From Escherichia phage vB_EcoS-12210I, in the sequence record NC_049813.1: a DNA stretch of 44,219 nucleotides; one strand, given 5' to 3'. A program made the translations under genes and the position numbers. Positions 4,037 through 44,219 of this stretch are shown here, piece by piece (position 1 is the stretch's first letter; each line of letters starts with the position of its first letter). A model generated the notes under the pieces. The model saw only the letters and a program-made list of their open reading frames with translations. It searched no databases and had not been told where the DNA came from.

Positions 4037-4971
4037 TGACTCAAGGTATATACATAGATCTTAATGATGGAAGGAATCCAATGACAATTACCGCAGGCAT
4101 GCGAGCCTTGAACTTTGCTGGAAACTTCAACGTTTCTAGTGGTGGATTTAGTAAGACGTTCTCAATCCAGGGAAATGAAGGGGCATCAAGGTTCCTTATC
4201 CCTAACAATGGAGCTTACTCATTCGAACTTGATAGAGGTGTTGAGATTTACTACATAAATGGATTCTCATCAACTGCATCAAGAGGAACGATATCGATTG
4301 GCTATGAGAATGGATATTCCGACCGTATAACTCAATTTTCTGGTACTGTTGTTGAGGTACTAAGAGCATCTACAGGCCAGGGTATTTACGTTTCTGACAG
4401 TACTGACTTTACTTCTATAACCACCACTGACAGGCTATTAGTATGCAAGTTTGCTCAGAGAATATCTTTCACCAACACATACACACTGCCAATTTATGGT
4501 ATACCGTTTGGAAAGTGGAACAACTCCGGCGTATCAGTTGAATACAATGGTAGTAACCAGCTGGTATGCACAAACATAAATACGGAAGATACTGGTGACA
4601 CTCCAGGAAGTGTAACTATGGACCTTCTTATATTTCAGATGGTAGCACCAACGCCAGGTCCTGGATTAAACATATTTAATTCAAATGGTGTTTGTACGCT
4701 GTCGACCGTAACTAGGCCATTGGTTGTTTCTGGATTCATAAACCTATCAGGTAGCAATCAGTACATTGGCGAATCTTACTTCCCAATACTCAGATGTGGG
4801 TTTAACACAAGGGCAATACGAGCATATAAGGAGTTGAGAAACAAAGGAATCGTAATGAGCAATGGGTATGTTAGATCTGGCACCGGCTCAAGGATTGTCA
4901 GATACGAGATAGGAAATAGGCCTGACGTAACAATATCAATGCCACTTCCTTACCTTCCTGATATGTATTAA
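4036..4971 (+). CDS. Hypothetical G/S/T/N/Y-rich protein, 311 aa, coupled to the Cor-like gene
   Basis: ATG 4036 overlaps Cor stop (TAATG); AAGGAG RBS; no recognisable catalytic motif. Confidence 0.5.
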   Translation: MTQGIYIDLNDGRNPMTITAGMRALNFAGNFNVSSGGFSKTFSIQGNEGASRFLIPNNGAYSFELDRGVEIYYINGFSSTASRGTISIGYENGYSDRITQFSGTVVEVLRASTGQGIYVSDSTDFTSITTTDRLLVCKFAQRISFTNTYTLPIYGIPFGKWNNSGVSVEYNGSNQLVCTNINTEDTGDTPGSVTMDLLIFQMVAPTPGPGLNIFNSNGVCTLSTVTRPLVVSGFINLSGSNQYIGESYFPILRCGFNTRAIRAYKELRNKGIVMSNGYVRSGTGSRIVRYEIGNRPDVTISMPLPYLPDMY

Positions 4972-24738: not shown

Positions 24739-24816
24739 TGGCGCTCCGCACTGGATTCGAACCAGTAACCTACGACTTAGAAGGTCGTTGCTACTATCCT
24801 ATTGAGCTAGCAGAGC
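24739..24816 (-). tRNA. tRNA-Arg (anticodon UCU), CCA encoded
   Basis: Manual cloverleaf: acceptor GCTCTGC/GCGGAGC (one G-U), T arm ACTGG-TTCGAAT-CCAGT, anticodon stem ACGAC/GTCGT with loop CUUCUAA, 5-nt variable loop; D stem weak. Confidence 0.8.
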
Positions 24817-27797: not shown

Positions 27798-27843
27798 ATC
27801 ATAGCTGACTACCCGATCCATTGTTTAGCAATTCGTGCTATTT
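27798..27843 (-). promoter_or_regulatory. Promoter-like module copy i: element 27824-27843, TATGAT 27798-27803
   Basis: Element and hexamer with 20-bp spacer; CATCGAAAACA start region. Confidence 0.55.
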
Positions 27844-28053
27844 GCGAACTATTTCGAACTTAGCCATTATGACGCCAAGGCTTTTTATCATAAGGGATTC
27901 ACCTATCGTCTTAACTATGTACCCATTACCATCAACCTTGATGTAGTATGAGCCATTAAAACAAGGTATCGGCTTAGCCACGTATATCCCGCCATTTACA
28001 ACTGAAAGGTTGTGGTGATTGGCTTGCCTTACATACACACATTTTATAAGCAT
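27838..28053 (-). CDS. Hypothetical protein, 71 aa
   Basis: ORF in early block. Confidence 0.4.
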   Translation of the reverse strand: MLIKCVYVRQANHHNLSVVNGGIYVAKPIPCFNGSYYIKVDGNGYIVKTIGESLMIKSLGVIMAKFEIVRK

Positions 28054-28160
28054 TAATATTCACCGTTCAGGAGAGCTTTCGCTTTCCAGTAGAACTCAAT
28101 CCCCGCCTTCACCTCCTCATCACTGTACCGGAAGTGGTATGGTAGTCTACTAGGATGCTC

Positions 28161-28583
28161 TCATTCGTATACTTTGAAGTTAGGCTCCCAGCTCTCCTCG
28201 AGGATTGCCGGATGAACATAAATCTTATCTCCAATGAGGCAAGCTAGATTCATACTCTCTAGGGCTGGGATAAACTCATCCTTAATGCGCGCCATTAGCC
28301 TGTCATTGCCACCCTTAATTCTTTTCGCCCTGCGAGCGCCTTCGTATAAAGACCTGATACCAAGCACGCCCTTGCCGTTCTTTGCCATTTTCCTAATAAT
28401 ATTAATCAGAACGCCAAGCGCTTCATCTTTGTATACTTCTGACGCATCGGGATGACCCCAGAAGCCTTGCGTTTGTCGATACCCGTTAGCATTGATTGCA
28501 ACCAGTAGCGGTGGCAGCCCATCTTGGATAGCAATATTCATAATCTGCTCGTCCGTCAGTTTCTCTTCATCGAAATTAAACAT
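28161..28583 (-). CDS. Truncated paralogue of the 31069-32652 NTPase (N-terminal and C-terminal segments only, no P-loop core)
   Basis: First about 45 aa and last about 85 aa align with the ends of the 527-aa protein. Confidence 0.55.
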   Translation of the reverse strand: MFNFDEEKLTDEQIMNIAIQDGLPPLLVAINANGYRQTQGFWGHPDASEVYKDEALGVLINIIRKMAKNGKGVLGIRSLYEGARRAKRIKGGNDRLMARIKDEFIPALESMNLACLIGDKIYVHPAILEESWEPNFKVYE

Positions 28584-29131
28584 CAGTTAGTCTCCTTAAT
28601 CATTTCATAGTAACGGGCCAGGGCAATGAGAGCGCCCTCTTTCTGCTCGCCTTGCAGGTCGATAACGTTAGGTGTGATCTTGAGTAACCGAGCCTTGAAC
28701 CTTTCAATGATGGCGACCTCTTTCTCTGCTTCCTGCTTCTTCTTCTCACGATTGCCAGTCCAGTGAGAGCCGTTCTCAATATAAATTACCAGGTATTTAT
28801 CAGCACCATCGCCGTCGAAATTACCCGGCCTGGTTTGCTCGCCTTCATCGTCAATCCAGATGAACTTGTAGCGCGCTCGCTTGTTGGCGTCTCGTAGTTC
28901 AGTCATTCGCGACACGGTATTGTAGATGTACGAGTTCTTGAGTTCAGGCATCGCCCTGTCTGCCAGGTTTAGGATCTCGTCAGTCTCTTCGTCATACTCC
29001 ATTTCTGGATATGGCTTGCCGCGAACAAGTTTGAATATCTGGCTTACCGGAACTTTGAACTCGCCGTTCTCAGACGCCATTGCGTTACGCACCATCTCAC
29101 GGATAACTTCGCCAAGTGTTACTTTCTGCAT
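28583..29131 (-). CDS. Hypothetical protein, 182 aa
   Basis: First gene of the minus-strand early block; leader contains AAACGAAACGAGG. Confidence 0.5.
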   Translation of the reverse strand: MQKVTLGEVIREMVRNAMASENGEFKVPVSQIFKLVRGKPYPEMEYDEETDEILNLADRAMPELKNSYIYNTVSRMTELRDANKRARYKFIWIDDEGEQTRPGNFDGDGADKYLVIYIENGSHWTGNREKKKQEAEKEVAIIERFKARLLKITPNVIDLQGEQKEGALIALARYYEMIKETN

Positions 29132-29408
29132 GTTGATACCTCGTTTCGTTTACTTCGTTTCAGTGATTGCCATCTTGCCACTTGTTTACGTGTCGGTCAA
29201 CGTATTTTTATGTCTATTCCATCGCGGATACGTTTTTTCGGCCTCCAAGGCAGCGTCAGCACTGGTTGTAAACGTGCCGTATCCCCTGTGTACCGTTTTT
29301 GGGAGTGCTTTCCTATATATGCGCCTTTTTATTCCTACAATGTCATCCCATTCTGACAAGTGTCAGAATATCTGCGCGGAACATATCAATTATCCAATCA
29401 ATTATCGG

Positions 29409-29483
29409 TATACACAGTATACATATATATAATAATAATAATAATAATAAAGTAAAAGGTTGATATATATAGATATTATATTG
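29409..29483. repeat. AT-rich repeat copy B with (ATA)6 tract; partner at 2361-2427
   Basis: Same flanks as copy A, longer trinucleotide run. Confidence 0.8.
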
Positions 29484-29679
29484 TATATCGTGCGTATATC
29501 TCGCGTAAAAAACGTAGGTTAGTGGTAACTAACTTTTGTGACGACACTTGGTATACGATGGTTACTCGTATATCTCAAGAATGGCTCACCAAGAATGAAA
29601 ATCAACTTGTATGGTAGTCAATCCATCTTTCATTCACTCACCCACCACTTCATTTCACTTTTCGCAACAATCAAAAACA

Positions 29680-29752
29680 TCATTGCATCAGAAGCAATAT
29701 TGCTGTATGTGCAATAATCATGTGAATCATTGCAATATCTGCAACAATGCAT
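29680..29752. promoter_or_regulatory. Cluster of TGCAA-containing palindromes (AGCAATATTGCT, ATTGCAAT and others)
   Basis: 6-7 TGCAA/TTGCA copies in about 70 bp upstream of the plus-strand early operon. Confidence 0.45.
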
Positions 29753-29761
29753 AAATCTGAC

Positions 29762-29809
29762 GAATAGCGCTTTTTGCTAAAGACATTATGAGTTAGCGAG
29801 GCTATAGTT
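29762..29809 (+). promoter_or_regulatory. Promoter-like module copy j: element 29762-29781, TATAGT 29804-29809
   Basis: Element and hexamer with 22-bp spacer; start region CATCAAAAACGAGG. Confidence 0.5.
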
Positions 29810-29835
29810 AGCTCATCAAAAACGAGGAGATAGAA

Positions 29836-30015
29836 ATGAAGATTGATAAAGATGAACTTCGTAACGAATGCGCACTGATTGGGCTTAACGAAGATTACAC
29901 AGACCTTGTGTTGCGCGGAAAGTTGGACATTAACTTGGCTAAGCAATTCCAGTCAGAGGATGAATTCCTGTGCTGTGATGGACTTGGATGCGTTGAATGT
30001 TTACCATTTATTTGA
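29836..30015 (+). CDS. Hypothetical Cys-rich small protein, 59 aa
   Basis: GAGGAG RBS; C-terminal CCDGLGCVEC; below track cutoff. Confidence 0.45.
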   Translation: MKIDKDELRNECALIGLNEDYTDLVLRGKLDINLAKQFQSEDEFLCCDGLGCVECLPFI

Positions 30016-30025
30016 AGATTGAGAT

Positions 30026-30265
30026 ATGAAAATTCGCTGCACTAACTGTATCACCAGCACGGACAAGAAGATTTTGACACCGTTCGTAAAGGGCTCTGTA
30101 TACAACGCTGAGCCACTAATCATTAACGGCAAGGCAATCCCGAACGAGTGGTTGATTAATGGCGCTGAGCGACCGCACAAGAACGATTCTGGCTGGATTG
30201 CCATTGCAGGCTGGAATGTTGTGATGTTTATCCCTGGAATTGCAACTTTTGACGAGGTGAAATGA
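30026..30265 (+). CDS. Hypothetical protein, 79 aa
   Basis: ORF with N-terminal CTNC motif. Confidence 0.45.
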   Translation: MKIRCTNCITSTDKKILTPFVKGSVYNAEPLIINGKAIPNEWLINGAERPHKNDSGWIAIAGWNVVMFIPGIATFDEVK

Positions 30266-30426
30266 TGCTATTACCATCTGAGATAAATTATTTCGATCTT
30301 GAGGTCATAAGTGCCTACAGCGGCAAGGGTTGGCCTTGCGGTGACTGGTTTAATGAGGACCTACTGGATTCTCACGAGATTATGCTCAAGGCGATAGAAA
30401 AAGCACGAAATAGCACGAATTGCTAA
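30262..30426 (+). CDS. Hypothetical small protein, 54 aa
   Basis: ATGA-type overlap with upstream gene; 3-prime end overlaps promoter element k. Confidence 0.3.
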   Translation: MMLLPSEINYFDLEVISAYSGKGWPCGDWFNEDLLDSHEIMLKAIEKARNSTNC

Positions 30427-30469
30427 AACGAAATCGCAAGGATGCGGTATTATCTTTACATCGAAACGG
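30408..30469 (+). promoter_or_regulatory. Promoter-like module copy k: element 30408-30427, TATTAT 30448-30453, start region CATCGAAACGG 30459-30469
   Basis: Full module geometry. Confidence 0.6.
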
Positions 30470-30479
30470 GAGATAAGAA

Positions 30480-30644
30480 ATGTTCGACAACTTTCATGAC
30501 GCGATAGAAGAGGCATTGTACCGCGCGTCACTTGATGGGAAGATTTACGGTTTAGTTCAGAAGGTTGACAAGATTGTTGTGCGAATCGTGCGCAAATCAG
30601 TACCTAACAAATTCATGTGGACAACTAAGAGAGTAACAAAATGA
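30480..30644 (+). CDS. Hypothetical small protein, 54 aa
   Basis: GGGAGATAAG RBS; ATGA overlap with next gene. Confidence 0.4.
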   Translation: MFDNFHDAIEEALYRASLDGKIYGLVQKVDKIVVRIVRKSVPNKFMWTTKRVTK

Positions 30645-30994
30645 CAACTACGATTACCAAAAACTGGATCAGTAACGAAAACGTATTATACAAAGCCAGA
30701 GTAAAAGATGGCGTAGAGCAAATCAAGAAAGATGGAAAATGGATTAACATTGAAGAGCGCGGCAAGTACATCAAGACAAAGACCATTTACTGCACAAATG
30801 TTAATCATCGATCATCCATTCGTAAATACTTCACTGAAGGGAAGAGATATCAAGTAGATCTCCATGCTGGACTTGGTCAGTTCGCTGGATACATTTACGA
30901 TAAAGAGGGCAGCGCATGGCAGCTATATCGTGACGAAGATGTTGGCTTTGTTACAGTTTGCGGCGACTACCGCTTTGAGGCTCAATACCGATAA
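30641..30994 (+). CDS. Hypothetical protein, 117 aa
   Basis: ORF coupled to upstream gene. Confidence 0.5.
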   Translation: MTTTITKNWISNENVLYKARVKDGVEQIKKDGKWINIEERGKYIKTKTIYCTNVNHRSSIRKYFTEGKRYQVDLHAGLGQFAGYIYDKEGSAWQLYRDEDVGFVTVCGDYRFEAQYR

Positions 30995-31068
30995 TAAGCA
31001 CAAATTGACAATGAATTATAAGCGGTCGTTGATATAATGGCCGCTCAGAAACAATACGGAGACAAGTA

Positions 31069-32652
31069 ATGTTCGATTTCAACGAAGATAAACTATCTGT
31101 TGAACAGGTTATGGCAATTGCTGCCGCAGAAAACCTCCCGCCCCTGCGCGTCGCCATTAATGCTAATGGCTATCGCCAGTCTCAATCATTCTGGAAAGCA
31201 CCAGTCGAGATTGATGCAGCTAATGACAAGTATCCAGTAATCTCACTAGGTAATGACATTGATGTTGTTGGTAAGCTGTCAGCTAATATTGCCCGTTCTG
31301 TTCAGTTCCCTGAGTCGTCAGCTTACATGCACTTCCTGGGGTGTATTTCCGCTGCAATGCTGGGTCGATTTACTGTTGAGTATCACGGAACGCAGCAACC
31401 GACTTCGCTGTACGTCGTAACGAGTCAGCCACCATCGACGGGTAAATCAGCAATCAACTCACTTTCAATTGCTCCAATGATTGCTGAGACTGAGCGACTA
31501 AATAAAGTGAGAAAGCGTGAGCGCAAGAAAATTATGGCAAAACTATCTGAATTATCCAAAGAGATGAAGCAGGAAAAATCTCCGTCAGAGATGGCTTCAC
31601 TTTTTGAGGAGAAAGAGGAACTAGAGGAAAAACTCGAGAAACTATGTGATATCGTTTTCCCTGTGTCAGATACCACACCGGAAGGACTTGCGCGAATAAA
31701 CAACCGCCAGGGCAGCTTTGCTGTAATATCAGATGAAGCAACCAGCGTCAACTCACTGCTTGGTATGACCTATGGTGATGGTTCGAAGAAAACGAACAGC
31801 GAGCTTGTGCTGAAGGCCTGGGATGCTGGTAACGTGTCAATTGCGCGTGCTAACGCAGAAAACAATATGAGCTTTGTTGCTATGGGTTGCATCTCTGTAA
31901 TTGCACAGGATGAAACAATCAATGCGATCATGAACGCTGGCGCGCGTGGTATCGGTGTATCTGAACGTTTCCTGCTTGTACGTGAAAAGTCATTCCTGGG
32001 CGAGCGTGTGTTTGTTGATGAAAATGGTGAGTCAACTTACGAACCGATAGATGGTGAGCTTAAGGCTAACTACTTCCGTCTGGTTCATGAAATCATGAAT
32101 GAACAAGAAGTTAAGTTGACAGTTAGTAATTCAGCAATGAAATATCTCAACCGCGCGCGTCAGGAGATGGAACCGCACCTTGCTGACGGCGGGAAGTATT
32201 CACACACAATGTTGCGAGGCGCGTTGGGTAAGTTCGATAAGCAGGCAATCAGGATTGCGGCGGTTCTTCACACTGTGCGTAACTGGTTCAACCCAAATGG
32301 CGGTAGCCCTCAGAAGTCGAGAGAAATTGAGCTTGATACAATGCAGGAAGCTGTAATTATGTTCCAGGAACTTAGCAAGACTTATTTGTCATCCGCTAAC
32401 GCCGCGGGTCACGCTGGCGACAATGCAGAGATGAATAAGCTGATTGATATCCTGATTAAGCAAGGCAAAAACGGGAAAGGAGTAGTAGGTATTCGTTCGC
32501 TATATGAAGCGGCTCGCAAGGTTAAGCCGTTCGAGGCTCAAGCGGGAGTAATGACGAAGATTAAAGACCACTTGCTGCCAATGCTTGATGAGAAAAACTA
32601 CACGTGCCTGATTGGTGATAAAGTTTACATTAATCCACGACTATTGGGGTGA
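31069..32652 (+). CDS. P-loop NTPase, putative replication-associated protein, 527 aa
   Basis: Walker A-like QPPSTGKS and Walker B-like AVISDEA; termini shared with the 140-aa paralogue. Confidence 0.55.
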   Translation: MFDFNEDKLSVEQVMAIAAAENLPPLRVAINANGYRQSQSFWKAPVEIDAANDKYPVISLGNDIDVVGKLSANIARSVQFPESSAYMHFLGCISAAMLGRFTVEYHGTQQPTSLYVVTSQPPSTGKSAINSLSIAPMIAETERLNKVRKRERKKIMAKLSELSKEMKQEKSPSEMASLFEEKEELEEKLEKLCDIVFPVSDTTPEGLARINNRQGSFAVISDEATSVNSLLGMTYGDGSKKTNSELVLKAWDAGNVSIARANAENNMSFVAMGCISVIAQDETINAIMNAGARGIGVSERFLLVREKSFLGERVFVDENGESTYEPIDGELKANYFRLVHEIMNEQEVKLTVSNSAMKYLNRARQEMEPHLADGGKYSHTMLRGALGKFDKQAIRIAAVLHTVRNWFNPNGGSPQKSREIELDTMQEAVIMFQELSKTYLSSANAAGHAGDNAEMNKLIDILIKQGKNGKGVVGIRSLYEAARKVKPFEAQAGVMTKIKDHLLPMLDEKNYTCLIGDKVYINPRLLG

Positions 32653-37123: not shown

Positions 37124-37537
37124 TGAAATCATTTCTCTAAATGCAGCAAGAAAACCCTCGCGACCGTACGCCACGGCAGCGAAGCCGCCTGACTCTCTTA
37201 CGCTTTTAAGGAAGGACTTCTGCTCGTTACTGACTGGACTAGCCTGGGTTTTTCCTGCCCTCTTTAGCTCTATGGCTCCGAAAGGGTACTTTCCTCTGAT
37301 AGATTCGGGAATAAGAAACATACAGTCTGATACGCCTTTGAGAAGCCCTTTAGCCTGGTCCTTTCTTGCTTGACCAATGGTTTTTTTGCCCTCATTCACG
37401 CAGTGGAAAAATACCATCTCTGGATAGTTATACTTAACCCAATCAGAGCAAAAGATTTGTTCGTCATCCTCTTTCGGACACGACTTAACCGGTCCAGAGT
37501 AAAACTCAATGTAATCAAATTTGTCTGTAATGTTCAT
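37118..37537 (-). CDS. VRR-NUC family nuclease (putative)
   Basis: PD-(D/E)xK-like GVSDCMFLI...GAIELKRAG. Confidence 0.5.
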   Translation of the reverse strand: MNITDKFDYIEFYSGPVKSCPKEDDEQIFCSDWVKYNYPEMVFFHCVNEGKKTIGQARKDQAKGLLKGVSDCMFLIPESIRGKYPFGAIELKRAGKTQASPVSNEQKSFLKSVRESGGFAAVAYGREGFLAAFREMISK

Positions 37538-39528
37538 AACAATTCTCCAAAATTCTTAAAAGCTATTATATCCTTTCCTTTGCCATTCTTGCGGTGTGTC
37601 ACCTGGACTGGCGCACGAAACTTATCTGCGTTAGTCATAATCATTCTTGCATTCTTCAGTCTGCCAATTCGTGCTGCTTCAGCGCGATTTTCAATGTGAG
37701 CAAGGCAAAAGTTTTTCCAAAGCACACTACAAACCCTATGGTCAGATTCTGGATTGAAGAACTCCCAAGCGTTAAATCTTTCTCCGTTGTGGGCCATGAT
37801 ATTGTACTTAACTACAATGCCCGTTTGATTCTTGCTTAAACCAACTTGAAAATCATAAACCCGCAAATAGTCTCCGCGACGATACATCTTTCCAGTCAGG
37901 TTAGCGTTTGGGTCTTTAAGCATTTCTCCGCATTCACGACAAACTTTTGCTGCTATGTCATTTTTAGTTCCACAACCTTTCTTGATTACCGCCTTTGTTT
38001 GTTGGTCGGTAATATCATCACATGTTGTGAACTGGAAAAAGTGATCGCATCTAACGCCATTAATCTTATTGCTACAGCGTCTAGCAAATGGCGAGTTCTC
38101 ATATCCACATTGCGGACACTGGCGAACCTCATCACCACCTTTTCTTGAGGATTTAAACTTCTCAGCCTGAATCTCCTCAATTATTGGGTCAAAGTAAAGC
38201 TCTGCCATGTCATCAAGCGCTCCGGCAAAGTCTAATACCAAGTGGTCCTCCTTCTTGAACCCAGCATCTATGTGCGCCTTTTTTAGTTTTCGCATGCCAC
38301 GACCAAGAAGCTGAATCATTAAGGTTAGACTGCCAATCTTGCGTAGTATGACGCTAGTATCCCACAGCGGTTGGTTTACGCCCGTGGTTAGACATCCAAT
38401 CTGAAAGATAATCTTGTACTTTCCAGTCTGGCAATCTGCAAGAATCTCTCTGCGCCTCCTCTCTCCGGTAGAATCGGTGATAATGGCGTAAGGGTATCCA
38501 TCCGGCAATGCCGCAGCAGCCTCATCACAATGGAGTTTTCCAGCGCAGGTGACCAATGCGGCGTTGCGAGTCTCCAGTATTTTGACGACAAACTGCATTA
38601 TCTTTTGTGTCATGGTTTGGTTGTCGTGAATCTTTGCGGCCATTGCATCCATTTCTTTTCTGCTAAAGTCTTTCACGCCATCACTACCGTCTGGAACAAA
38701 CTCGCTAAGGTCATAACCCAAATCGCCAACCTCGCCATAAACAGTAGGAACCACGAATCCCAAATCAACAAGGTAATTTGTTGGAACCTGAATCACAGTT
38801 TTTCGCCAGAACCCACGGATATTTGGATTGCTAACGACGATATGATCATTGTTTCGATAAGGGCTACCAGTAAGGCCGAATATACGAAGCTCCCGCCCGT
38901 ATTTTTCACGGCAGCGACGCTTCATCTCAGTGATTATTAGCGTGTACTGCGCACGACCAGTACCAAGCAATCCAGTATTAACGCCATCCTTAAAAACCAT
39001 CTCGCCTTTCTTTGTGCTCATTTGCTCAAATGTTTCTTCATTCTCTTCGGCTTCCACGATATCCATGTGATCGACCATGTGACACTCATCGATTGCGATA
39101 ACAGCCGGAACATAGTCACCAAGCCCCTTAAATAAGCCGTTAGCTGCCGTGCCCTCACTGGCAACTATGGTTGGGTAATAAACTGATTTAACGTTAAGCC
39201 CGGCGCAATAGACGCTATTACGGATGCCAAGATTGCGAAGCTCTTCTGAGTTCTGGCTGATTATCTCTGACTGGCGAGAAAGCACCATATAAGGAAGACC
39301 AAGCTGCTCCATACGCTTACCAATCATAGCGAGAATGATTGTCTTACCAGCCGATACGGAAAGGTCTGCGATAAATGGCGCCTCATACTTGCCAATAGCC
39401 TTCCCAATTGCGTCAAATGTAACGCACTGGAATTCGTAAGGGGTTATCTCGCCAAACTGGTAATCTTTCTGAATCTGCTTGATTCTTTCTTTATCGAAGT
39501 TTGCAACCAGCTTCTCGATAGGCAACAT
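37534..39528 (-). CDS. DExH-box ATP-dependent helicase with C-terminal zinc-ribbon motifs
   Basis: Walker A SAGKT, DECH box, several CxxC pairs near the C-terminus. Confidence 0.7.
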   Translation of the reverse strand: MLPIEKLVANFDKERIKQIQKDYQFGEITPYEFQCVTFDAIGKAIGKYEAPFIADLSVSAGKTIILAMIGKRMEQLGLPYMVLSRQSEIISQNSEELRNLGIRNSVYCAGLNVKSVYYPTIVASEGTAANGLFKGLGDYVPAVIAIDECHMVDHMDIVEAEENEETFEQMSTKKGEMVFKDGVNTGLLGTGRAQYTLIITEMKRRCREKYGRELRIFGLTGSPYRNNDHIVVSNPNIRGFWRKTVIQVPTNYLVDLGFVVPTVYGEVGDLGYDLSEFVPDGSDGVKDFSRKEMDAMAAKIHDNQTMTQKIMQFVVKILETRNAALVTCAGKLHCDEAAAALPDGYPYAIITDSTGERRRREILADCQTGKYKIIFQIGCLTTGVNQPLWDTSVILRKIGSLTLMIQLLGRGMRKLKKAHIDAGFKKEDHLVLDFAGALDDMAELYFDPIIEEIQAEKFKSSRKGGDEVRQCPQCGYENSPFARRCSNKINGVRCDHFFQFTTCDDITDQQTKAVIKKGCGTKNDIAAKVCRECGEMLKDPNANLTGKMYRRGDYLRVYDFQVGLSKNQTGIVVKYNIMAHNGERFNAWEFFNPESDHRVCSVLWKNFCLAHIENRAEAARIGRLKNARMIMTNADKFRAPVQVTHRKNGKGKDIIAFKNFGELL

Positions 39529-40152: not shown

Positions 40153-40178
40153 GCCTTTATTGTTTATGGAGGGTGTAT

Positions 40179-41105
40179 ATGAATTATCATGACAAAAATG
40201 AAGTGATAGCTAAAATGAAAGGGATGTGGGGTGAGTTCTACTTGTCTCATTTGGGATGGACCAGAGAAAATCTTAGCAAGAAGCATGGGCCATGCCCGAA
40301 TTGTGGAGGTCGTGATAGGTTTAGATTCACTGATGAGTTAGGTCAAGAAAAGGGAAATGGAGCAGCAATATGCAACCAGTGCGGCAATGATTCTGGTGTT
40401 GGTTGGGTCATGAAGTGTTCCGGAATGAGTTATAGTGAAACAATAGATACGCTTGGTGATTGGCTAAATCTCGTTCCAGTAGAGGTTATATCAAAAGCAA
40501 ACAAAAGAGCATCTCGTACATCACCATACAAAATGGGCGCTCAGATTGACCATGAAAGATGCTTAGAGATAATGGAAAGGACGGAGAGGGTAGAATCAAC
40601 TCCACTCAGCATATATGAGGGTATCTATAGCGAGTTTGGCTTTGATGTTGGCAGAACAAAATCAGGCGAAATAATACACGCAATACCGTGTTTTATGGCT
40701 TATAGTGACGGCATATCGGAAGAAATGTGCAATGTAATGTTTATAAATGAAGATGGAGATGTTAGTTATGCTGCAAAAGATTACACTCGCCAATCTGTCG
40801 CTGTTATTGGTGCCTTTAAAAGTGATGAGTACGCTTATCTTGTGGATAATTGGATTGATGGTATTCGTGTTCATCTTGCTACTGGTAACCGCTGTGTACT
40901 TGTTTGCCACTCTAGCTACAATATGGAGATGGTTGCTTATGCGCTTAGGAACCACAAGCTGAGAGTGGCTTGTACTCGCCACGATTTTGATTTACTCGCC
41001 GTTGCTGATGATCGCAATCTTGATGTTGTAATGCCAAATGATGATAATTTTTTCAAGTCAGGAATAAGAAAGCGCATATACAAGGCAAGCGAATTACTAG
41101 ACTAA
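40179..41105 (+). CDS. DNA primase (zinc-ribbon type)
   Basis: GGAGGG RBS; CPNCGG...C..C zinc-binding motif near the N-terminus. Confidence 0.65.
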   Translation: MNYHDKNEVIAKMKGMWGEFYLSHLGWTRENLSKKHGPCPNCGGRDRFRFTDELGQEKGNGAAICNQCGNDSGVGWVMKCSGMSYSETIDTLGDWLNLVPVEVISKANKRASRTSPYKMGAQIDHERCLEIMERTERVESTPLSIYEGIYSEFGFDVGRTKSGEIIHAIPCFMAYSDGISEEMCNVMFINEDGDVSYAAKDYTRQSVAVIGAFKSDEYAYLVDNWIDGIRVHLATGNRCVLVCHSSYNMEMVAYALRNHKLRVACTRHDFDLLAVADDRNLDVVMPNDDNFFKSGIRKRIYKASELLD

Positions 41106-43595: not shown

Positions 43596-44021
43596 TCAGA
43601 ATGGGATGTCGTCCTCGAAGTTCTGTTGCTGCTGAGGTTGCTGTTGCCGCTGAGGTTGCTGTTGCCGCTGAGGTTGATGTTGCTGTTGCTGCGGTGCTGA
43701 ATCACCACGCTGACTAAACTCAAGTCGCGGATTGTTCATGTTAATGGTTACGTAAGTCTTACCATCTTTATCCCTAACATCTACAGCCAAACTTTCAGCG
43801 CTAACACTAACAACTTTACCTTCTTGAAATGCATCATTGTACCAATCTAACATAGATTCTTTAGCGAAGAAGACGGCGCGATAGTTACTATACTGATTCT
43901 GCCCATCTTTATCCTTATATCGCTCACTCAAATCAACTGCGAACATTTTCCAGCTACCATTAGCATTCTGACCTTCCTTAGTGAATGGGGCGCGTCGAAT
44001 CTGACCAGTAATTACGTGCAT
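43596..44021 (-). CDS. ssb: Single-stranded DNA-binding protein
   Basis: C-terminal acidic tail ending DDIPF preceded by a Gln/Pro-rich linker. Confidence 0.85.
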   Translation of the reverse strand: MHVITGQIRRAPFTKEGQNANGSWKMFAVDLSERYKDKDGQNQYSNYRAVFFAKESMLDWYNDAFQEGKVVSVSAESLAVDVRDKDGKTYVTINMNNPRLEFSQRGDSAPQQQQHQPQRQQQPQRQQQPQQQQNFEDDIPF

Positions 44022-44062: not shown

Positions 44063-44219
44063 TTAGAATGTGTCGATTTGTTTTGATTCTACTTTAATCT
44101 TTTCTTCAGGACTACTTTTTTCTGCAACTTTCTTTGGTGCTGCTGGGTTGAAGCCAGTTGCTGCATTTGCTTCAATCTCTGCCTTTCGCTCTATGATGTG
44201 GGGTTCGAAAACCTTCCAT
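44063..44219 (-). CDS. 3-prime part of the ERF-like gene (same gene as 1-621; 44093-44219 duplicates 1-127)
   Basis: Frame continuity across the junction; TAA at 44063-44065. Confidence 0.5.
   Translation of the reverse strand, partial: WKVFEPHIIERKAEIEANAATGFNPAAPKKVAEKSSPEEKIKVESKQIDTF
44093..44219. repeat. Terminal overlap copy (identical to 1-127)
   Basis: Direct comparison. Confidence 0.9.

Follow-up and report, generated by a model that had tools for sequence, protein, structure and literature searches.

A T1-like phage encodes, as a separate gene, the two ends of its predicted MCM-like helicase without the ATPase core

The window analysed here is the complete 44,219-base-pair (bp) genome of Escherichia phage vB_EcoS-12210I (NC_049813.1), a siphophage of the vB_EcoS series belonging to the Drexlerviridae (T1-like), Braunvirinae, Veterinaerplatzvirus. 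We found that a protein of 140 amino acids (aa) encoded on its minus strand, here called the mini, is an anciently duplicated relative of a predicted 527-aa helicase encoded on the plus strand, and that it retains only the helicase's two ends. Judging from the residues that the two proteins share, we propose, with a probability that we put at about 40%, that the mini binds what the ends of the helicase bind and so may modulate helicase recruitment or assembly. The two genes and their parts are as follows.

31069..32652, plus strand: predicted DUF3987, MCM-like (superfamily 6, SF6) helicase, 527 aa, homologue of T1 gp09 and Rtp67
31069..31194, plus strand: helicase N-module, residues 1-42, with three short helices predicted after a disordered MFDFNEDKL peptide; isoelectric point (pI) 4.5, hence acidic
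31195..32406, plus strand: helicase core, residues 43-446, which holds both Walker motifs and has no BLASTP match to the mini
32407..32649, plus strand: helicase C-terminal winged-helix domain (predicted), residues 447-527, pI 9.3
28161..28583, minus strand: mini paralogue, 140 aa, phrog_7327, ending at an in-frame TGA (28161-28163)
28458-28583, minus strand: mini N-module, residues 1-42
28200-28457, minus strand: mini winged helix (predicted)
28164-28199, minus strand: mini linker remnant

An earlier note, made from the sequence alone, had called the 527-aa protein a P-loop nucleoside triphosphatase with Walker A and B motifs, and had proposed a hidden Markov model search of its central domain. 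That search returned a Pfam PF13148 match over residues 81-430 (E = 4.7e-42, 144.9 bits against a cut-off of 27), and the protein also matches the 'DNA helicase' family phrog_2373 (E = 1e-258). Both motifs are present, Walker A as QPPSTGKS at residues 120-127 (31426-31449) and Walker B as AVISDEA at residues 218-224 (31720-31740), and residues Q120, P121, P122, G125, K126, S221 and E223 are invariant in 31 homologues that reach down to 35% identity. An AlphaFold model built with these 31 homologues as input (predicted local distance difference test score, pLDDT, 89.6; predicted template modelling score, pTM, 0.87) has an MCM-like AAA+ fold with a C-terminal winged helix. A Foldseek search with this model gave 23 PDB matches at E<=1e-3 (best E 4.5e-6), and MCM2-7 or archaeal MCM chains, SsoMCM included, make up nearly all of the top 50 listed. 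The three helices of the N-module span residues 11-21, 25-33 and 36-41 of the model, and the winged helix runs through helix 451-468, strand 472-474, helices 475-482 and 494-508, and strands 512-515 and 518-521. The helicase was found in 908 phage records, essentially all of them T1-like phages, and its ratio of nonsynonymous to synonymous substitution rates (dN/dS) of 0.02-0.04 indicates very strong constraint. The P-loop assignment was thus correct and can be sharpened: by its sequence and predicted structure, the 527-aa protein is a DUF3987 MCM-like SF6 helicase. DUF3987 has been assigned to superfamily 6, with a winged helix-turn-helix at the C-terminus, and its members are considered probable replicative helicases (PMC4889955). 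DNA unwinding itself has been demonstrated for a distant member, AgaPH, a 5'-3' helicase that physically binds its primase (PMC11724360).

The mini aligns to both ends of this helicase and to nothing between them. In BLASTP, mini residues 1-69 align to helicase residues 1-73 (49% identity, E = 4e-20) and residues 35-128 to helicase residues 439-526 (44% identity, E = 2e-21), with no counterpart in the mini to helicase residues 74-438. Profile-profile comparison of the two winged-helix parts with hhalign gave a probability of 99.6% (E = 7.5e-24), and each protein matches the other's PHROG family; they are the sole paralogous pair among the genome's 236 open reading frames (ORFs) of >=45 aa. The junction is clean: the mini's ...GFW42-G43HPDASE corresponds to the helicase's ...SFW42 joined directly to G447HAGDNAE, and the mini thus equals the helicase minus residues 43-446, a block of 404 residues that takes in the whole Pfam domain (81-430). 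The mini has no Pfam match at E<=0.1, lacking the PF13148 ATPase domain and the Walker motifs, and its residues 1-140 match positions 1-142 of the 179-position phrog_7327 profile (E = 1.2e-57), the coverage being cut short by the TGA. On its sequence, the mini is therefore a derivative of the DUF3987 helicase family but neither a member of that family nor a helicase. The earlier note had placed both ORFs at these coordinates, strands and lengths and had described the shorter as the same protein with its ATPase core removed. The pairwise E-values rule out an insignificant terminal similarity, and sequence, profile and predicted-structure evidence all back the reading of retained ends and missing core; what the note overlooked is a C-terminal tail typical of the mini's family, the TGA that removes this tail in the window, and a partner gene of the DUF7174 family immediately upstream.

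Predicted structures agree with the alignments. The AlphaFold model of a 175-aa homologue that is 84% identical to the mini (pLDDT 80.5, pTM 0.67) has the same helix and strand elements as the ends of the helicase model, and mini residues from about 54 to 123 are predicted to adopt the winged-helix topology H1-b1-H2-H3-b2-b3. The near-invariant residues of the N-module and winged helix across minis (A18, A29, I30, N33, G34, Y35, W42, G72, R84, G91, P106, L108, C115-I117, Y122 and P125) are all identical in the helicase, and the only conserved element specific to the mini is its tail. An exhaustive search of database representatives found no protein carrying the N-module or the winged helix beyond T1-like helicases, minis and fragments of these. 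Two candidates were set aside. The 2282-aa protein P0256 is repetitive and its match spurious, and an apparent stand-alone winged helix in Klebsiella phage KL (locus L033, NC_049838.1, 4001-4288) is a helicase remnant in a rearranged record rather than a mini. In the KL record only the last ~96 helicase codons are present, unannotated, beside a small fragment annotated as terminase large subunit, an arrangement that reflects either a rearranged genome or a misassembly. Neither the mini nor the DUF7174 protein has a sequence match to solved structures, NCBIfam or PADLOC.

We then asked how the mini evolves. Eleven orthologues compared in pairs have a dN/dS of 0.15-0.46, also at distances at which synonymous sites are saturated; taken at about 0.2-0.35, the ratio is some ten times that of the helicase. 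Minis are 41% to 91% identical between phages with helicases that are 91-98% identical. A strong ribosome-binding site, with the Shine-Dalgarno sequence AAGGAG, lies before the start codon, which overlaps the stop codon of the DUF7174 gene (TGATG). Distant minis conserve the modules (N-module 48%, winged helix 33% and tail 29% identity) and differ in the linkers (12-19%), and the family reaches down to 33% identity with the domain pattern kept. More than 270 homologues were found, with a full-length mini in about 111 phage records, and among 149 database cluster representatives about 118 have the full length of 165-185 aa. A search of IMG/VR returned no loci with a single-sequence query and 19 loci with an alignment-based query. 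Because of its dN/dS, ribosome-binding site, coupling to DUF7174 and conserved modules, the mini is a real coding gene under purifying selection.

The duplication is old. Within one genome, the proportion of synonymous differences between helicase and mini is 0.65-1.0 (saturated) and the longest common nucleotide word is <=20 nucleotides (nt), which rules out both gene conversion and a recent duplication. The N-modules of the two proteins are nonetheless 62-73% identical despite this saturation, so that their similarity must be held by selection on both proteins. Neighbour-joining on the shared segments places the minis in a single group with a long branch, next to helicases of the Braunvirinae/Rogunavirinae type (a monophyly with a weak bootstrap, 19 of 60 on 122 columns), and the distance from mini to helicase grows with that helicase's own distance from the Braunvirinae/Rogunavirinae clade. 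All mini carriers that were checked belong to the Braunvirinae or the Rogunavirinae. The most economical history has a single duplication in the common ancestor of both subfamilies, followed by one in-frame deletion of 404 codons, gain of the tail and then acceleration.

Several viable phages have lost or broken the mini, namely Rtp, Rogue1, an Sd1-like phage, CEB_EC3a and the phage of locus L020. Rtp (L027, 1064-1383) retains a stub of 19 mini codons followed by a lipoprotein-like gene (MKRLMKCMTIIAAMVALTGC...), and Rogue1 (L035, 1103-1189) a stub of 28 codons. In the Sd1-like phage (L024, about 4210-4412) an unrelated 66-aa ORF, still beginning MFDLDE, occupies the slot, the mini of CEB_EC3a has a TAA at codon 37, and that of one IMG/VR contig has both a stop and a frameshift. 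As it evolves fast and is often replaced or disrupted in viable phages, the mini is an accessory gene rather than an essential one. Two metagenomic 'micro' minis, P0267 (82 aa) and P0268 (51 aa), carry further clean in-frame internal deletions, one consisting of the N-module with linker and tail and the other of the N-terminal peptide with the tail; these deletions resemble, at a smaller scale, the one that made the mini from the helicase.

Most minis of phrog_7327 have 173-178 aa and an extra C-terminal helix that the helicase lacks. In the window, this helix lies in frame behind the stop codon, and other lineages have comparable stops:

28056..28160, minus strand: tail, 35 in-frame codons after the TGA (EHPSRLPYHFRYSDEEVKAGIEFYWKAKALLNGEY), corresponding to the family's tail helix
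28053-28055, minus strand: TAA that closes the tail, overlapping the ATG of the next gene (27838-28053)
Linker stops elsewhere: TAG in DTL, one codon further on; TGA in an OR861626-like phage; TAG at codon 129 in a metagenomic phage
Loci of these three other stops: L010 8671-9192; L028 and L029 3001-3530; L030 3001-3525

The window's TGA stands at the position of a Gly in relatives, and full-length relatives read straight through it. The three other lineages acquired their stops independently in this linker, and behind each stop the tail is still intact and in frame; 4 of 6 independent nonsense events thus fall in the linker that follows the winged helix, a span of about 17 codons out of 175 (binomial p about 1e-3 in a post hoc test). 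Over mini codons 90-140 (28164-28316, 153 nt ending just before the TGA), four lineages (the window, L003, L006 and L031) share one nucleotide sequence (100% identity), while their N-terminal halves differ (synonymous divergence 0.2-0.4), as do their post-stop tails; an identical block between differing flanks suggests that the truncated cassette spread by recombination. The tails in this TGA clade contain helix-breaking substitutions, A to G in the window and, in L031, L to P and A to D; dN/dS after the stop, estimated from very few changes, is 0.1-0.7. Programmed UGA read-through that would keep the tail is unsupported, given that the other linker stops are one TGA and two TAG and that the tails have acquired these helix-breaking substitutions, which lead us to favour, on few data, a true truncation in the window. 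The pattern indicates that selection maintains the N-module and winged helix as a core, and that the tail can be dispensed with under some conditions or is selected against. No similarity was found between the tail and any other gene of the phage.

The mini lies in a leftward operon that diverges from the helicase operon across a non-coding stretch, as the earlier note had observed in placing the two genes on opposite strands around the main control region:

28583..29131, minus strand: DUF7174 gene, 182 aa, phrog_4841, first of the leftward operon, its stop overlapping the mini ATG (TGATG); sequence AAGGAGACTAACTGATG
29132..29835: non-coding, AT-rich control region of 704 bp between the divergent mini and helicase operons
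29423-29482: the genome's most AT-rich 60 nt, with (TAA)n
29492, 29503 and 29512: phased [GA]CGTA repeats
29655-29774: cluster of TTGC/GCAA inverted repeats, the genome's densest, with the palindrome GCAATATTGC at 29694-29703

The DUF7174 protein (Pfam PF23796, E = 1.3e-49) occurs in 132 phage records and carries no structural or functional annotation. In all related loci that were examined, its gene lies directly upstream of the mini and is translationally coupled to it. DUF7174 alleles are nevertheless exchanged independently of the mini: in L003 the mini is 88% identical to that of the window and the DUF7174 protein just 36%. The TTGC/GCAA half-sites number nine per 120 nt at 29655-29774 against a genome mean of 1.6, and the blocks of the control region are kept in nine diverged relatives in which the sequence around them is not. 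A scan of the region for promoter and terminator consensus sequences gave nothing above chance. By these features of its DNA, 29132-29835 looks like a candidate origin and operator region.

We propose that an old duplicate of the DUF3987 helicase gene lost codons 43-446 in a single in-frame deletion, which would have removed the whole AAA+ motor and left two peripheral, non-catalytic modules, an acidic N-module of three helices and a winged helix at the C-terminus. The short C-terminal helix, which the TGA removes in this phage, would be a later gain of the family. Such a protein would neither bind nor hydrolyse ATP, nor encircle DNA. Because the mini keeps every residue that is conserved in the helicase ends, it likely binds the same ligand or ligands. 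By analogy with the winged helices of MCM and Orc/Cdc6 proteins, candidates would be a partner in loading or in the replisome, or else the DNA of the neighbouring origin-like region. Once bound, the mini may compete in helicase recruitment or assembly or modulate it, in either case without catalysis. The primase binding of the related AgaPH, the clustering of stops where they spare both modules, and the position of the gene pair around a conserved, repeat-bearing region also speak for this proposal. The mini would probably be made early, together with the translationally coupled DUF7174 protein. To our knowledge, no initiator or loader is annotated in T1-like phages.

Three observations weigh against this proposal. 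First, loss of the mini in viable phages means that any role it has in replication is dispensable. Second, the winged helix of the mini falls to as little as 27% identity with that of the helicase, which is itself nearly invariant; if the two competed strictly for one conserved ligand through this domain, such divergence would be difficult to explain. Third, the position of the recognition helix has few basic residues and the pI of the domain ranges from 5.3 to 9.8 across the family, both of which argue against a conserved sequence-specific DNA contact.

The speed at which the mini evolves raises an alternative, which we consider unlikely, in which the mini takes part in an arms race. It would be either a decoy against defence, mimicking the exposed helicase ends and soaking up a host factor that senses or attacks the essential, nearly invariant helicase, or an immune trigger that is sensed through the mini or its tail. 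Sensing would explain the repeated truncation and loss. The tenfold difference in dN/dS and the spread of mini identities beside near-constant helicases fit such a conflict, as do the position of the mini at the head of an early accessory region, which in Rtp holds a polynucleotide kinase and a Stp-like activator of PrrC, and the use of its slot as a replacement hotspot (the lipoprotein gene of Rtp, the unrelated ORF of L024 and the stub of Rogue1). Four independent stops remove the tail alone, and the TGA-bearing block, at least 150 nt identical in four otherwise diverged lineages, fits recent recombinational spread. However, dN/dS is well below 1, with no direct signal of positive selection, and rapid evolution and turnover are common among small early genes of phages in general; PADLOC gave no matches and our literature search found no defence system that targets this helicase. 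The fuller version, in which the mini mimics exposed helicase ends and the tail is a liability repeatedly shed by nonsense mutations and cassette recombination, we regard as somewhat less probable still. If the fast evolution did reflect conflict with host immunity, a defence system able to read a replicative helicase would be indicated.

The neighbouring control region suggests another alternative, also doubtful, that the mini is a neofunctionalised small winged-helix regulator that binds control or origin DNA, for instance as a transcriptional or copy-control factor working with DUF7174, and acts independently of the helicase, to which its similarity would be ancestry only. The predicted winged helix is of the Orc/Cdc6 type and in this phage is basic (pI 9.6), the gene adjoins a conserved region with inverted repeats, phased repeats and the most AT-rich tract, and the family has its own conserved addition in the tail helix. 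The [GA]CGTA repeats (29492-29517) and the TTGC/GCAA cluster (29655-29774) are candidate DNA sites, with nothing that ties them to the mini. The DNA blocks are almost invariant across phages, however, whereas the mini's winged helix is highly variable; its charge is not conserved in the family, the N-module is acidic, and neither part has conserved residues specific to the mini. Phages that lack a mini moreover keep the control region, and Rtp-type relatives have the same helicase and the same organisation of the region. Finally, a decaying, functionless remnant of the helicase duplication is very improbable: although the mini is often disrupted or replaced and is cut by a nonsense codon in the window, its dN/dS over saturated synonymous distances, the predominance of full-length cluster representatives, a domain pattern kept down to 33% identity, the conserved ribosome-binding site and translational coupling, and the avoidance of the N-module and winged helix by nonsense mutations all disfavour a pseudogene.

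Elsewhere in the genome, the replication genes include a RecE-like exonuclease and those listed here, with no DNA polymerase gene among them:

37534-39528: superfamily 2 helicase
40173-41105: DnaG-type primase
43596-44021: single-stranded DNA-binding protein

The record MK907232 and about 40 sister isolates are 100% identical to the window. An exact 127-bp direct repeat (1-127 = 44093-44219) most likely stems from an overlap that the assembler left at the ends of a circular or permuted genome, which would make the true length about 44,092 bp (a sister record has 44,091 bp). The sister record MK907228.1 has an annotated tRNA-Arg(tct), for which the matching position in the window is about 24739-24816 on the minus strand. 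A 19-nt motif, GGAGAnAAGnAATGTTCGA (a ribosome-binding site followed by ATG TTC GA...), is common to two gene starts, at 30469-30487 and 31058-31076, and MFD or MFN is the N-terminus of several early proteins in these phages, including the helicase, the mini and the ORF at 30480-30644.

The mini presents helicase modules that have been excised naturally and are predicted to fold independently, and may thus serve as a ready-made probe for the ligands of these modules and for helicase recruitment and loading. The natural allelic series of full-length, tail-less, stub and replaced loci would let phage genetics map its function. Should the mini be just a mild modulator, it would still be a tidy case of gene birth by duplication and core deletion, although of limited general interest.

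Among known systems, the 527-aa protein most resembles the DUF3987 helicases, represented by AgaPH (PMC11724360) and by those of phage N4 (dns) and mycobacteriophage Corndog (PMC4889955), with which it shares the Walker motifs, the MCM-like fold and the C-terminal winged helix. AgaPH has a PriCT domain, in whose place the T1-like helicase has the 42-residue three-helix N-module. The likeness of the winged helices to those of MCM subunits and Orc1/Cdc6 is one of fold, seen on a predicted model at 7-13% sequence identity, and does not amount to family membership; unlike Orc1/Cdc6 and MCM proteins, the mini has no AAA+ part attached. The phrog_7327 catalogue lists the mini family with function unknown and records no relationship to a helicase, and our literature search found no paper describing the mini as a core-deleted helicase paralogue.

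Truncated isoforms that modulate full-length replication proteins include polyomavirus T' and 17kT, papillomavirus E8^E2, the short forms of R6K pi and the Tn5 inhibitor. Like the truncated viral isoforms, the mini keeps the ends, with their presumed interaction or DNA-binding functions, has lost the catalytic core and is predicted to be co-expressed with the full-length protein. Those isoforms, however, are produced by splicing or internal starts within the gene of the full-length protein, to which they are near-identical in sequence, whereas the mini has a gene to itself on the opposite strand, one that arose by an ancient duplication and diverges fast. It also has a tail and a partner gene of its own, and its regulatory effect is putative. 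Catalytically dead, truncated relatives of replication proteins were thus already known, and what is new here is a separately encoded copy of an MCM-like phage helicase that consists of its two ends only.

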